DNA of 64,000 bases from Eledone cirrhosa. Its lineage: Eukaryota. How positions within the stretch are numbered: position 1 is the first letter of the stretch; every line of letters starts with the position of its first letter. Under the pieces are notes generated by a model. It was given only the letters and a program-made list of their open reading frames with translations, did not search any database and was not told the origin of the DNA. Shown here piece by piece: positions 3,357 through 49,545 of the stretch. Made by a program: the position numbers and the translations under genes. The stretch lies in contig OZ024740.1 of NCBI GenBank assembly GCA_964016885.1, forward strand, positions 226,920,001-226,984,000, given 5' to 3'.

Positions 3357-3928
3357 CATATTTTCTATTTAATTTTGGTTGTAATTCTTTTATGTTTAGG
3401 CAATAAACATAAAAGAATTACAACCAAAATTAAATAGAAAATATGAGTGGAACAGCAACATCACAACTTACAATTAAGGACAAAATGAAAACACAACGCA
3501 CATAGAACAAACAACCAACCTATAACATGTAAATAAACAAATAAATAAACGAACATAAACACACACAGACACCCGGATGTGGCGCATGCACAGACTGAGC
3601 ACACAACACACACACAGAAACAAAATGGTGTAGGACAGAACAAAGGAGAGGCACAAAAACAAAGAAAAGAATCCCCAGTCACTGAAGAGGTCACAGAATA
3701 TGTGACGAAAGAACTTTGACAATGTATAAACAACTACCTGGTTGTGGAACCAACCAACCAACCGGAAATTTATAAATTCTTAAATTTATAAATTTATTAT
3801 AATAAATTGAAGTGAAAGCAACTGGTGTGTGTGTTTCTTATTGGCAACATGACCCTCCCAAAGTATAACAATATCAGTTTCAACACACGTTTTCAGATAA
3901 AGAATCTTGCTAAACAAATTCAGAAACG
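3357..3928 (+). mobile_element. Hammerhead-containing element family P2 (putative Penelope-like pLTR) with a 42-bp perfect fold-back at its 5' end
   Basis: Homologous to 40753-41078 (-), 44659-44995 and 49311-49545 (-). Perfect inverted arms 3357-3398 and 3404-3445. The 3' end abuts (TA)n. Confidence 0.7.
3678..3720 (+). ncRNA. Minimal type I hammerhead ribozyme motif
   Basis: GUCA-CUGAAGA-G-GUCACA-gaaua-UGUGAC-GAAA-GAAC-UU-UGAC: stem I GUCA/UGAC, 6-bp stem II, core CUGANGA/GAAA, cleavage triplet CUU. Confidence 0.8.
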
Positions 3929-3966
3929 ATATATATATATATATATATATATATATATATATATAT

Positions 3967-4099
3967 GGCTTCTACAGGACTAGAACTGTTTCATTCGAAG
4001 GAAATCATCAGGGCTTTCCTGATGATTTCCTCCGAATGAAACAGTTCTATCTATTGAGTACTACCTTACTGTAATTACCACTGATTGAACACGGGATAC
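3967..4099. mobile_element. Short (TA)n-adjacent element with two back-to-back inverted hammerhead-like cores
   Basis: Inverted arms 3981-4012 and 4018-4049 (1 mismatch), each reading CTGATGA-TTTCCT(T/C)CGAAT-GAAAC outward. Confidence 0.55.
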
Positions 4100-6480
4100 A
4101 CTCACACACACATATATATATATGTTTATATAAATATATATATATATATATATATATATATATATATATATATATATACACACACACACATATATATTTA
4201 TCTATATATACATATGCTTACCATCATTATTTCTGTATTACATCTGTTCTTCTATGCTAGTAAGGCAAAACTTTTGATTAGGACGAACTTACTGATACCA
4301 ACATTTTATTTTTTCCTAACAGTAAGGTATTTATTCCATTCATTTTTACCTGTCAAAAAATAGCCAGACAAAGGAATTTTATTTCATAAAAATTCATGTA
4401 TGTACTTAAAACATAAAACCCTCACCAACCAAAAACTGTTTAGCCAAATCTAAGAAAATTGATTTTATATATACATTTTTGTAAGATATATATTTATATA
4501 TATATGCATGTTTGTATGTGTACATGTATGTATCTTTCAGAAAAAAATTCATACCCAGCTATGTATAAATTATATTCATGTATATATATATATATATATA
4601 TATATATATATATATATATATATATATATATATATATATATATATATATGTGTGTGTGTATGTGTGTGTGTGTGTGTGTGTGTGTATGTGTGTGTGTAAA
4701 GAGAGAGAGATTACACTAACTATGGTGTCATTTAAATACAATTATTTCTCTGGCTGTCTATTTCAGATTTTCATGTATATACACACATACACACACAAAC
4801 AAACACACATATATACAGTATTTTATCAAACCCGTTACATATATATATATATATATATATATACATACATACATATGTATATATGCATTTATACATATAT
4901 ATATTTATGAAATTATTTCATCTTTATTTTTAAATTCCGTCTAACTTCTTATTTTTTTATGCTATTATAAGTTACTTGTCTGAATTCAATGTTATTTCTC
5001 ATTTTTCTTCTAAAAAAAGGAGTGTACTTGAAGTCAGCTTAAGCTAAGAACATTGGCTTTTTGCCTGTCTTGCTCTCTTATTTAGCTTGTAAATATGTAG
5101 GCTTGAAGATTATTTGTTGGTGGGGTGGGATTACATGCAGACATAGTTGTGCTGCAAAGGAGTTTGCTTCACAACTACATAAATTGGGGTTCAATCTCAC
5201 TATGTGGCACTTTGAGCATTGTTTCCTACGAGGGTCTCAAGTTGACCAATGGTTTATGAGTGAAATTTGAGAAACAGAAATTATGTGAAATACCATTGTG
5301 TGTGTATATATATATATATATACAATGGCATTTCACACAATATATATATTATATTATTTATTCATGTTCATATAAATGTATGTGTGTGTGTGTGTGTGTG
5401 TGTGTTTATATTTACTGTTTATGTCTGGTAACTGATGAAATAAGTATCAGACTTAAAAAGTCAGAAAGTTCAACTAAATCCATTCAAGTGGGTACTCCAG
5501 CATGGCCACAGTCTAATGACTGAAAAAAGTTTTAAAAAATGAAAAAAAATTTAACATACTGAGTTATTTTATTACACAATTTAATCTAAGTTAACTTTTG
5601 CAGCAGAATGAAAAATGTGAATTGTGTACTAATGATGTGATTCCTTTTACTTCAAATAAAGAGAAGGTATAATTGGGCCTAGAATGACTTTTATGGTTGT
5701 AGTGATATATGACTAAATTTGTTAGAGATAATAAGGATTTATCTTTTTTGATATTAAGCTCCCTGAAACTGACTCTGTATATATTTATCTAAAACCTTCC
5801 CTCATGATATTATGTAAAGATCTTTGTTAAGCTTTGTTCTAAACACAAGATGTATTAAGTTAGATATTCAACTAAATCCTTTCAATACTTGATAATTTAA
5901 AAAAATATTTTGAATATCGCAAGCAGTGTCTTTCATTAGATATATGTAAACAAAATGCATACACTAAAAATATATACTTTTACCATTTTCACTGTCTCTC
6001 TCTTCCTTCATCATTTTCCGTCTCTTACTTTCTCTTTCACACACTCTCCCTCTCTTTCACTCCAGCCCATGTCTCTCTCACATTCTTTCTTTCCCCATGT
6101 CTCTCATACTTACTTACACTCATATAACAATGAACAGCTTTCTCATAAATGAACCAAATATTGATGACAAATTTCCCAAGTGGATACATTTCATTGCTAA
6201 AATTTCAGGTATATAATCTTATGTAGCAAATGAGAAAAGCATATAAACTTTTAGAATATTGTGATGATGATGATGATGATGATACTTTCTCATATTAATA
6301 ACAAATTCGTGAATATTTATTTAGTTACTTTTTTTTTCTTTTCAAATATCTTACATACGTTTCAAGATTTCTGATGGAGTATTTTTTGGTGTGCAGGTAG
6401 AGCCAGAATCACTTTTATCACAATTAGTTCTAAATTTACTTAGAAAAACTAAATAAATAGATATAAAAAAAAATGTAAAG

Positions 6481-6567
6481 ATGAAGAAGAAGCTACGTTC
6501 TATAAAAACAATGTTGGGTAAAAGTAAAACCTTCATCTCTGAAGTTGCTAATAGCAATGATGTTCAT
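6481..6567 (+). CDS. Possible first coding exon of an unidentified host gene (MKKKLRSIKTMLGKSKTFISEVANSNDVH)
   Basis: Non-repetitive sequence. ATG at 6481 with an in-frame upstream TAA (6454-6456), 29 codons, then GTAAGC donor at 6568. Pyrimidine tract and AG upstream (~6330-6367). No homology recognised. Confidence 0.25.
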
Positions 6568-47457: not shown

Positions 47458-47550
47458 TCCAGCTGTAGAAATCAAGCCAGAATCAGTTCCCGTCCCTCCC
47501 TTGCAAGCAGGGAAAAGAGGACGTAAAATGAAATGATGATGATGATGATG
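47458..47550 (+). mobile_element. SINE family B, 3' part (continuation of 45963-46211)
   Basis: Resumes TCCAGCTGTAGAAATCAAGCCAG where the 5' part stopped. Confidence 0.85.
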
Positions 47551-49096
47551 ATTGGTAGTGGCAGTGGTGATGGTGGTGGTGGTGGTGGTGGTGGTGGTGA
47601 TGGTGTTTTTTGGTGGTGTTGTCACTGGTAGTGGTAGTGATGGTAGTAGTGGTAGTGATGATATTGTTGTTATTGTTGTTATTGGTAGTGATAGTGATGG
47701 TGGTGTTAACTGATGTCAGTGATTGTGGTGGTGTGTAGGGGGTGGGTATTGTTGTTGTTATCGGTGTGTGGTAATTCATTAAATTAATCTGATTATTACT
47801 AACATTGATGATGTTAGAAGTTCAGTCTTCTGTCTAGCAAACACAAGAAGAACATTGCTTTTTATTGCTTTGTATGATGTTTTCTTTCTTTTGATGTGAT
47901 TCTGGTGTGATTTCTATAGAACGCGAGCTCTACTGAACTTCACAGTCTTAAGTCTTGCTGGATCTGTCTGCATTTGACAACAACACTTTTTATAAAGACT
48001 TCAGTTTACTGCAGTTCATTAAGTGATTTGTTTAAATCAGCTCTATCTCCAAGACCTCGGTAGATCATGACAGACAAACAAATGCAACAAATGGACAAAT
48101 TCTTTTTTTTTTTTAATTCTTTAAGAAAAATCTATAAAAAATGGAATTTTGTAGAATTGATCGTGTCTGTTTATATTTTCTTAGTACAAACACACATACA
48201 TATGTACATGTATTGATATATACATACATGTATGTGTGTGTGTGCTTGTGTATATCTACATGTATATCTATATATATATATGTAGGCATACATACATGTA
48301 TATATACAAATATGTAAATATTTATATGCATAGAAACATTTTATATATATATATATACATATCTATATACTCACACACACATATATATATATATATATAT
48401 GTGTATATATATATATATATATATATATATATATATATATATATATATATATATATGCATACATACACACACACACACACATATATATATATGTATATAT
48501 ATGTGTATGTTTGGTGTGTTTAAGTATATATATGTGTGTGCATGTGTGTATACACTTGTTTATATCTATTTGAAAATAGAAGACCATAGGTAAAAAAACT
48601 TAAATGATGTATATAATATAGATGAAGATTAACAAAAATAAAACTATATAGAGAATCGAAAGAAACATTTTGAAAATGTTTTCTGTAGGAAAGTACAGGT
48701 TTTATATAGCTCTGACATTTATTCTCGTCACTTCCAGCATCGTTAGTAGAAGTGTTTGTTTGCTGTAAGATAGAAGTATATCTGAGATTTGAATGAAAGA
48801 AAGTGCAAAAAGAGGCAGATAGAGAGAGAGGGAGAGAGAGACGGACAGACAGACAGAGAGACAGAAAGAGAAAGTGGAGAAAGACAGACATACAAACAGA
48901 TTGAGAAGAAGCAACAATGGTTTGAAGGAGAGAAGACAGGACAGAAAAATAAGCATGTGACACAAAAATGGGCAATGATTTCTCTGTAAATATGGAAATA
49001 TATACATACAAATATTAGGGGTGTGTATGAAAGCATATACACCCCTATTATACTTAAACGCTGCCTTAGTGTTACTGGTAATATATATATATATAT

Positions 49097-49300
49097 ATAG
49101 GAACGAGTAGGACCCCGAAGGCTGAGCTCAAGCCGTTTCAATGGCTAATTCTGGACTCAGAGTCCAGAATTAGCCGTCAAAACGGCTTAAGCTCAGCCGT
49201 CGAGGTCCTACTCGTTCCTATTACCCACTCTACTACCCTAAGTATTGAGTACTTTGGTGTGTTATGGTCCATCTGGTTCCTTACCACATTTCCTTCGTTA
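49097..49300 (+). mobile_element. Fold-back element family P1
   Basis: ~60-bp inverted arms plus P1 body. (TA)n on both sides. Confidence 0.8.
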
Positions 49301-49310
49301 TATATATATA

Positions 49311-49545
49311 TATTGCTGTATTTGGAGAGGGTCATGTTGTTATGATATTGCCAGAAATATATAAAATAAAATATACTCACTGTTTGGTTTGGGTTTGTTT
49401 ACACTTCAGTATATTTTATATTTCTATAATTAATTCAGCTGGCAATCAATGTTTATCATTGATTGACCAACAGTTAAAAATACAGATATAAATATAGTCT
49501 CTCAGAGTTCTTTCGTCACACACCTGTGACATCATCAGTGATACT
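49311..49545 (-). mobile_element. Diverged P2 subfamily copy
   Basis: GAGGGTCATGTTG and CACTTCA motifs shared with P2, plus the hammerhead. Confidence 0.6.
49502..49541 (-). ncRNA. Minimal type I hammerhead ribozyme motif
   Basis: UCA-CUGAUGA-U-GUCACA-ggug-UGUGAC-GAAA-GAAC-UC-UGA; triplet CUC. Confidence 0.78.

Follow-up and report, generated by a model that had tools for sequence, protein, structure and literature searches.

The window, a stretch of 64,000 nucleotides of Eledone cirrhosa DNA (contig OZ024740.1, positions 226,920,001 to 226,984,000, forward strand), contains four hammerhead ribozyme motifs, each within the pLTR that forms the 3' end of a Penelope-like element (PLE) copy truncated on its 5' side. 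The copies and their parts, in window coordinates, are as follows.

3356..3398, minus strand: short inverted 5' piece of copy 1, repeating the ORF end in reverse (100% match between 3398-3356 and 3586-3628 of the unit)
3398..3477, plus strand: end of the GIY-YIG endonuclease ORF in copy 1 (subfamily A1), comprising its final 25 codons and the stop (in tblastn, all 25 residues are identical to 536-560 of L037:2768-4447)
3478..3874, plus strand: 3' UTR/pLTR of copy 1 (96.7% to the L031 unit), extending 26 nt into the ORF of the following unit, whose ATG is at 3849
3678..3720, plus strand: hammerhead copy 1 (A1), with its predicted cleavage site after 3716; stem I has 4 bp and stem II 6 bp, and helix III reads A-G-AA-C-U
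3875..3934, plus strand: PLE "tail" (ORF +27 to +86), followed by (TA)n at 3929-3966
40751..41063, minus strand: copy 2 (A2), pLTR without tail, terminating in (AT)n at 40660-40754
40905..40949, minus strand: hammerhead copy 2 (A2); stem I of 5 bp, helix III with a mismatch, G15.2->U, that is private to this copy
41053-41086: short inverted piece of copy 2
44657..44775, minus strand: tail-bearing element end in inverted orientation, facing copy 3 head-to-head and adjoining (TA)n (89% to the A1 unit end)
44777..45003, plus strand: copy 3 (subfamily B) pLTR (71% to A1)
44835..44877, plus strand: hammerhead copy 3 (B); rare AGAUCU helix III, CpG-decayed G:U, predicted cut after 44873
49306..49550, minus strand: copy 4 (subfamily C) pLTR, terminating in (AT)n
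49502..49541, minus strand: hammerhead copy 4 (C); stem I 3 bp, loop II 4 nt

An earlier note on this DNA had placed hammerheads at these four positions, with N7 as A, A, G, U and H17 as U, A, U, C in copies 1 to 4, a stem III mismatch in one copy, a G:U pair at the stem II base in one copy, and AGAUCU in the 44835 copy. All of this is present in the sequence, with the mismatch in the 40905 copy and the G:U pair in the 44835 copy, and the motif layout puts the predicted cuts after 3716 and 44873, as the note had done. The minimal type I features are there (CUGANGA, GAAA and UH core, helices I and II, an extra base after A9, and G10.1-C11.1). A type I descriptor (CUGANGA, stem II of at least 4 bp, GAAA, at most 8 nt, UH, stem I of at least 3 bp) matched the window exactly 4 times, at the four motifs, and shuffled windows (100 shuffles, 1-kb blocks) gave a mean of 0.01 matches and a maximum of 1. 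The looser pattern CTGANGAN{8,30}GAAA matched the window 13 times versus 2.26 expected. An Rfam comparison of the window returned no hammerhead family among the matches listed (150 of 239), which were dominated by hits of miRNA models to microsatellites. Low-complexity repeats are abundant in the window.

A search 5' of the motif for an ORF encoding a reverse transcriptase (RT) and a GIY-YIG domain had been proposed as a check. That ORF lies directly upstream, with its last 25 codons at 3400-3477, and it bears out the suggestion that the family is PLE derived; the retrozyme-like alternative raised alongside it finds no support, since the motifs lie scattered at the ends of an element that codes for protein. 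Full copies elsewhere in the genome define a parent unit of 4,061 nt (4.06 kb) with one frame encoding, in order, an N-terminal region, RT, thumb, CX4CxxC linker, and GIY-YIG. Locus L031 carries two hammerheads 4,061 nt apart, i.e., the motif sits in the pLTR, and the motif and its predicted cut lie 136 nt upstream of the following unit's first in-frame ATG. One unbroken stop-to-stop frame of 1,257 codons is found at L215. Insertions sit in (TA)n and terminate at ORF +26 or +86. Among 20 long copies, fetched from 40 that were scored out of 955 candidates, a direct pLTR precedes the ORF in 17, an inverted 5' copy is present in 3, and 8 carry the 86-nt tail. The element shows traits of PLEs with a C-terminal endonuclease (EN+): a single ORF with a telomerase-like RT and C-terminal GIY-YIG, partial-tandem pLTRs, inverted 5'-truncated copies, a one-sided tail, and a hammerhead in the pLTR. 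The inverted piece at 3356..3398 is a typical PLE 5' inversion.

Structure prediction agrees with the presence of an RT and a GIY-YIG domain. The top Foldseek row for the protein model was TERT, and the predicted structure aligned with telomerase RTs (Z 8.4-8.8 and rmsd 4.1-5.4 over about 250 aligned positions) and with the I-TevI GIY-YIG domain (Z 10.3, rmsd 2.2, 88 aligned). The Pfam match to RVT_1 was weak (E 2e-4, below its cut-off), and Pfam gave no family for the N-terminal 678 aa or the L215 frame.

The four copies had been assigned to one family, but they represent four subfamilies, A1, A2, B, and C. Copy 1 is 92% identical to copy 2 and 71% to copy 3, while its alignment with copy 4 is confined to the ribozyme plus the 3' end. 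Nor are the stem oddities tolerated variation, as had been supposed; they are mutations and decay that followed insertion. The AGAUCU position in 32 other B copies is G in 27, A in 4, and T in 1, and a palindromic stem III was therefore rejected as a family trait. The change C11.1->U, which gives the G:U pair, is CpG decay (12/32 B copies and 9/23 C copies; flanking CpG sites decay at 0.26-0.28), and the stem III mismatch of copy 2 occurs in 0 of 12 A2 copies found by pattern. Genome-wide, two disjoint patterns gave 19,777 and 6,086 exact motif matches (~25,900), with 0 for reversed controls. A pattern for other stem II types revealed no third stem II family among the matches listed (100 of 374), which were point mutants of the two known stems. 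Of 80 motif-centered loci, 30 stop at +26 in (AT)n, 25 have the tail, 20 have no end block that was found, and 5 end otherwise.

The proposal that the ribozyme was selected in active ancestors is supported by comparison between subfamilies. In six copies of other subfamilies, the ribozyme is 82-92% identical to A1, versus 45-62% for four-fold sites and 44-77% for the protein. A 17-row ribozyme alignment is invariant (17/17) at C3, U4, G5, A6, G8, A9, G12, A13, A14, A15.1, and U16.1 and varies at N7, the extra base, loop II, and H17, which is never G. Four pairs show double changes, and stem II is 100% paired, its replacement in subfamily D of GUCACA/UGUGAC by GUUGCA/UGCAAC being a single lineage event; only 81% of stem I cells pair, and the count of covarying pairs in this alignment did not exceed that in shuffles (300/500). 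Core positions no better conserved than flanks had been put forward as evidence against a ribozyme, and within subfamilies this is nearly the case: constrained positions changed at 0.8 versus 1.3% (p 0.20), 2.2 versus 3.5% (p 0.03), and 3.6 versus 4.6% (p 0.27). Such decay does not refute a ribozyme, because dead copies are expected to decay in this way, and the PLE reading stands.

We consider it very probable, on sequence grounds, that these are minimal type I hammerheads in the pLTR of an endonuclease-bearing PLE, that the truncated copies are likely dead, and that in the active parent the motifs likely cut a tandem transcript. We regard as unlikely an alternative in which the motif has been conserved for its fold, as an RNA or DNA signal for protein binding, translation start, or docking of the RT, with cleavage in vivo rare or absent. 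Helix III is weak, as is stem I in subfamilies C and D; the insertions retain an uncut site; and metazoan minimal hammerheads have low activity in vitro (PMC4209133). In the green anole, a PLE inserted in vitro without need for cleavage, and no RNA-seq reads terminated at the site (PMC11167929). However, the positions kept in 17/17 rows are the catalytic ones, while variation falls on N7, the extra base, loop II, and H17, the last of which is never G.

Very improbable, and already largely refuted, is the idea that the copies are non-autonomous retrozymes or SINE-like short hammerhead units mobilized by a PLE. The majority of copies are short, animal retrozymes have been proposed to derive from pLTRs (bioRxiv 10.64898/2026.07.22.740005), and in run X1, a run of unrecorded kind whose depth is no copy number, depth was ~130-fold higher over the pLTR than over the ORF start. 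That depth declines gradually along the ORF, however, while A, B, C, and D copies have ragged 5' ends that extend into the ORF and the window holds no tandem array of short units; non-LTR retrozymes, which are noncoding tandem type I units, were rejected on the dispersed position of the motifs at the ends of a coding element. A chance motif in simple-repeat debris or a DNA transposon is refuted, despite the abundant low-complexity repeats, by shuffle and reversed-pattern controls of about 0 and by the RT and GIY-YIG ORF.

For hammerheads acting within a PLE, we propose the following course. A partial-tandem copy would be transcribed through two hammerheads 4,061 nt apart, and cleavage would release unit-length RNA, which could be circularized. 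With a helix III of only 2 bp, cleavage is probably assisted by the element's protein. Nicking of (TA)n would fall to the GIY-YIG domain, and the RT would initiate internally at two ATAT-ending sites. As these sites are 160-220 nt 3' of the cut, any insertion with a whole motif must, on this course, derive from RNA left uncut or re-ligated there. Early RT termination and strand inversion could then yield the short pLTR-only copies of the window.

Thermodynamic estimates bear on whether the motif might act as a dimer. The dimer helix of the common helix III, AGAACU, comes to +2.4 kcal/mol and falls below zero in variants only (-1.7, -0.4, or -5.0 kcal/mol). G15.2-C16.2 is kept in 16/17 rows, with a loop of AA, GA, or AG. 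Since the dominant helix III is weakly self-complementary, unaided dimer cleavage by the dominant motif appears doubtful. In copy 4 the stem I pairs have a probability of about 0.2; in a D copy, where the core is buried in the best fold, the value is about 0.

Hammerheads in PLE pLTRs are an established system, published by Cervera and de la Pena (2014, PMC4209133) and reported as near universal. The motifs here share with the minimal hammerheads of metazoan PLEs the type I form, short helix I, long helix II, tiny helix III, extra base between 9 and 10.1, G10.1-C11.1, and pLTR location, as well as mostly single dispersed copies and several families per genome. They differ in helix III, where a G-C encloses a purine-purine pair and no true palindrome is formed, and in number, with about 25,900 exact matches versus up to about 9,000 in that study, where search methods differ. 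To this system the present case adds a clean selection test, of ribozyme versus four-fold sites across subfamilies, and a very large copy number. Poseidon_Ac of the green anole (Frangieh et al. 2024, PMC11167929) likewise has two 3' ends inside the ORF start with a tail between them, AT-rich targets, and a hammerhead at the pLTR-ORF junction. Its cut, however, is 26 nt after the start codon, whereas the predicted cut here is 136 nt before the first in-frame ATG; its RT starts near +111-118, versus ends at +26 and +86; and Poseidon lacks the Zn-finger linker. Ribozyme mutants of the anole PLE left in vitro insertion unimpaired (PMC11167929). The position of the 3' ends here, 160-220 nt past the cut, would constrain the template to uncut or re-ligated RNA and so bears on the role of PLE hammerheads.

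The literature searched held no cephalopod family with the same hammerhead sequence, nor any account of this element family or of C-terminal EN+ PLEs whose fingers carry a long insertion; these may be recorded in Repbase, in Dfam, or in subscription papers such as Arkhipova 2006. An Octopus vulgaris repeat paper lists 31 recently active PLE families, and its main text mentions no hammerhead, ribozyme, Nematis, or Neptune (PMC13282606).

By linker, the parent resembles the Nematis clade (PMC8557442, Figs S1, S2, and S7), with which it shares, by eye, CX4CxxC followed by 7 residues to the next Cys, an extended HK...RP loop, IVE(K/R)PG before the linker, a CCHH endonuclease, and a hammerhead in the pLTR. 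The Nematis trait of CX2-5CxxC with a short spacer to GIY-YIG is present, and the linker-to-Cys spacer is 7 in 73/99 measurable relatives. It is also 7 in Nematis_Cr and _C4, in contrast to about 25-30 in Neptune; the Neptune clade was rejected on this long spacer after CxxC. A linker-endonuclease query for short-spacer Nematis-type references returned one protein, and none of the protein searches returned a Nematis reference.

The RT fingers set the element apart. RT3-to-RT4 spacing is 128 aa in the parent and 121-135 aa in 119/121 measurable relatives. The three Nematis references have about 60 aa there, and a Neptune-like RT encoded in the same genome has 59. The excess is a ~68-aa insertion in the fingers at the position of the telomerase insertion-in-fingers domain (IFD), a likeness drawn by position; the fold search gives ranges only, and the 63-88 loop is of lower confidence. 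Canonical C-terminal EN+ PLEs lack an IFD, which is no synapomorphy (Craig et al. 2021, PMC8557442), and the element departs from them in this trait. Judged from sequence, the insertion is common to a broad marine-invertebrate lineage with a Nematis-type linker and absent from reference C-terminal-EN PLEs. Tentatively, and with somewhat less than even confidence, we place the parent in an unnamed, widespread C-terminal-EN lineage (octopus, jellyfish, coral, and probably ctenophores) that combines this linker with the conserved ~68-aa insertion and may have seeded one genome with about 26,000 hammerheads, including thousands of head-to-head or tandem pairs. If so, its five or more subfamilies with covarying stems would form a natural series for partner-motif versus protein dependence; and if the insertion marks an unnamed clade, it would extend PLE classification and offer a tractable model for the telomerase IFD region.

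Two further clades were considered and rejected. Hydra elements have DKT, a CxCX5C linker, and no CCHH, whereas the element has DKSG, CX4CxxC, and CCHH-type residues. Naiad and Chlamys have an N-terminal endonuclease and no canonical hammerhead, unlike the element, and their reported fingers insertion is 20-40 aa versus ~68 aa here. The octopus PLEs Hydra-1_Obim and Naiad_Obim/Naiad_Ovul (Craig et al. 2021) are also inserted in (TA)n, and Hydra-1_Obim carries a hammerhead, but of other sequence (File S2).

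All four hammerhead motifs claimed by the earlier note were found, with the features it described, and each lies in a truncated end of a Penelope-like element (PLE):

3678-3720, + strand, motif of copy 1 (subfamily A1)
40905-40949, - strand, motif of copy 2 (subfamily A2)
44835-44877, + strand, motif of copy 3 (subfamily B)
49502-49541, - strand, motif of copy 4 (subfamily C)

A type I descriptor (CUGANGA, stem II of at least 4 bp, GAAA, at most 8 nt, UH, and stem I of at least 3 bp) matched exactly these four motifs in the 64-kb window, and 100 block shuffles gave a mean of 0.01 matches and a maximum of 1. 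All four consist of CUGANGA, one extra base, a 6-bp stem II, GAAA, four bases, and UH, with a stem I of 3 to 5 bp. Of 239 Rfam matches in the window, the 150 listed include no hammerhead. Three features that had been singled out as special reflect decay: of 32 other B copies, 1 shares the AGAUCU helix III; the stem III mismatch is absent from all 12 A2 copies examined; and the G:U pair, which arises by CpG loss, is present in 12 of 32 B copies and 9 of 23 C copies.

The species' own genome (3.0 Gb) was searched with window positions 3560-3928, which gave matches at 95 to 100% identity (40 scored of 3,045 candidates). Extending the common sequence 5' reached a GIY-YIG coding region in most of 30 loci, and its final 25 codons occupy window positions 3400-3477. 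One genomic locus (L031) comprises a 1.08-kb pLTR (the repeated end), a complete 4,061-nt unit, and (TA)n. Another (L215) holds a single frame without stops of 1,257 codons (1,184 if counted from the MFCC methionine), encoding the reverse transcriptase (RT) motifs MDVVSLYPS, QEEGAAIG, and YVDD, followed by a thumb, a CX4CxxC linker, and a VVY...YIG endonuclease. An AlphaFold model of the last 560 amino acids (pLDDT 81.5) matched I-TevI (Z 10.3) and telomerase RTs (Z 8.4 to 8.8). Twenty long copies were fetched: a direct pLTR precedes the ORF in 17, an inverted 5' copy is present in 3, and an 86-nt tail in 8. A search with the motif alone located 80 loci, of which 30 stop at ORF +26 in (AT)n and 25 carry the tail; no end block was found in 20, and 5 are of other kinds. 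Among named proteins the closest comes from Octopus vulgaris (68%), which points to an octopus-type cephalopod as host. The architecture matches the canonical form in Craig et al. 2021 (PMC8557442). The element's identity as a PLE is not in doubt, and that the four motifs are its pLTR hammerheads is, mechanism included, very probably the whole explanation. The N-terminal half of the ORF (L031, about 4040-4560; L215) contains a long Asn/Thr/His low-complexity tract of variable length, coded by (AAC)n and (AC)n repeats, with the frame preserved in the open copies seen.

Two disjoint motif patterns had 19,777 and 6,086 exact matches genome-wide, with none for reversed controls; these counts score head-to-head copies twice and miss mutated copies. 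The window copies fall into four subfamilies (A1, A2, B, and C), of which B and C have ORFs of their own. In a fifth, D, stem II is GUUGCA/UGCAAC (97 of the first 100 matches listed).

Ribozyme identity to A1 is 82 to 92% in six copies from subfamilies B, C, and D (binomial p 9e-4 to 2e-10, the six copies not being independent), versus 44 to 77% in protein and 45 to 62% at four-fold sites. Conservation is likewise high (67 to 96%) across the initial 26 nt of the ORF, where insertions end. Across 17 rows hand-picked to span the subfamilies, 11 catalytic core bases are invariant; pairing is 100% in stem II and 81% in stem I, with two double changes each, the stem II change being a single event. 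The number of covarying pairs in this alignment did not exceed that in shuffles (300/500). Among copies of the same subfamily, the difference between constrained positions and flanks is small or absent (A1, 0.8 versus 1.3%, p 0.20; B, 2.2 versus 3.5%, p 0.03; C, 3.6 versus 4.6%, p 0.27), these rates being low estimates because the copies were best matches to the window copy. Conservation between subfamilies together with decay within them therefore indicates that selection acted in replicating lineages, while inserted copies decay.

The predicted cut site lies 136 nt ahead of the first in-frame ATG, 4,061 nt separates the motifs of a partial tandem, and insertions have two 3' ends, +26 and +86. 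Transcription through the tandem would be followed by cleavage at both motifs, releasing a unit-length RNA that might circularize, as Cervera and de la Pena proposed in 2014 (PMC4209133). The endonuclease would then nick (TA)n and the RT would initiate internally at two sites, as demonstrated in vitro for an anole PLE in Frangieh 2024 (PMC11167929). Because the RT start sites lie 160 to 220 nt beyond the cut, the template would have to be uncut or re-ligated at the motif.

Stems I and II are predicted to fold at a probability of at least 0.89 in copies 1 to 3; that of stem I is about 0.2 in copy 4 and about 0 in a D copy. The dimer helix from the usual helix III is predicted at +2.4 kcal/mol, and variants at -1.7 and -0.4. 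Lunse et al. 2017 reportedly concerns dimer cleavage of PLE hammerheads. Given the weak predicted stems and dimer helix, unaided dimer cleavage is doubtful here, and we favor protein-assisted cleavage, which PMC11167929 reports for the anole motif. A motif that cleaves rarely or not at all in vivo is a less likely reading, which gains from the finding that the anole PLE did not need cleavage for insertion in vitro (PMC11167929). Retrozyme identity was rejected, as the element does not fit their definition as tandem non-coding units (preprint 10.64898/2026.07.22.740005).

PLE pLTR hammerheads are already a known kind, to which this family adds a member: PMC4209133 deals with minimal hammerheads in PLE pLTRs, mostly dispersed singly, with several families per genome. 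File S2 of PMC8557442 includes an octopus Hydra-clade hammerhead, which differs in sequence from the present motifs, PMC13282606 covers octopus PLE expansions, and PMC6155905 offers general background only.

Seven residues separate CxxC from the following Cys in the linker, a spacing shared with Nematis_Cr and Nematis_C4 but not with Neptune, and the extended HK...RP loop and IVE(K/R)PG resemble Nematis by eye. The stretch between motif A and motif B' measures 128 aa, versus about 60 aa (counted) in the Nematis references and 59 aa in a Neptune-like RT of the same genome. This span is 121 to 135 in 86 of 88 measurable relatives from a set of 143 proteins, which share conserved residues inside the insertion, and in 33 of 33 from 143 further proteins. 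Named relatives occur in an octopus, the jellyfish Sanderia, and the coral Stylophora; the top Atlas cluster includes one ctenophore record. According to Craig et al. (PMC8557442), canonical C-terminal EN+ PLEs lack an IFD, which measures about 20 aa in Naiads and 20 to 40 aa in Chlamys and is sporadic in Coprina. That the insertion is homologous to the telomerase IFD is suggested only by its position. No description of a long-insertion PLE lineage was found in the literature within reach, which excluded Repbase, Dfam, and subscription papers. These PLEs could represent an unnamed long-insertion lineage, a tentative reading.

Hydra-like (L033 964-2916, L042) and Neptune-like (L034 8340-9035, L045) PLE ORFs also occur in this genome, so at least three PLE lineages coexist. 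A second hammerhead family lies head-to-head directly behind copy 1, and other repeats are dispersed through the window:

3966-4060, second hammerhead family, motifs at 3989-4011 (-) and 4019-4041 (+)
1540-1737, 12550-12803, 25975-26203, 31151-31298, 41090-41272, 49081-49313, and 60481-60626, (TA)n-inserted fold-back family
13239-13450, 34-bp tandem repeat
20460-20529, - strand, tRNA-like match (39.4 bits), probably a SINE head
45002-45239, 240-bp fold-back element
51912-52804, 62-bp minisatellite, 14 copies
59540-59617, - strand, possible hammerhead with an 8-bp stem I and long loops, which may be chance

The second hammerhead family has a 3-bp stem II, a 4-bp stem III (ACAG/CUGU) around an 8-nt loop, and a predicted cut after A, and apparent covariation of stem I is seen between two subfamilies. 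It recurs at L015, L022, L040, L050, L068, L082, L158, L162, and L200 and by eye resembles Hydra-clade motifs in File S2 of PMC8557442. The (TA)n-inserted fold-back family, possibly a non-autonomous PLE stub, adjoins copies 2 and 4, and many of its copies are inverted at nearly one place. Of a hammerhead-like motif it carries the 3' half alone (GAAA, a 4-bp stem III around a palindromic loop, UC, and GGGG), with CUGANGA at most 50 nt upstream in 0 of 24 copies in fetched loci. The descriptor found two more hammerhead families, at L033 (about 4974 - and 5273 +) and L035 and at L031, L040, and L012, one having a palindromic helix III (CUAG) and a 7-bp stem I. Hammerhead-like motifs with the U3-A8 core variant (UUGAAAA, UUGAUAA), which PMC4209133 reports for Schistosoma PLEs, occur at L032, L039, L061, L068, and L069 and at L092 and L108, with a palindromic helix III (CCGG, AUAU).
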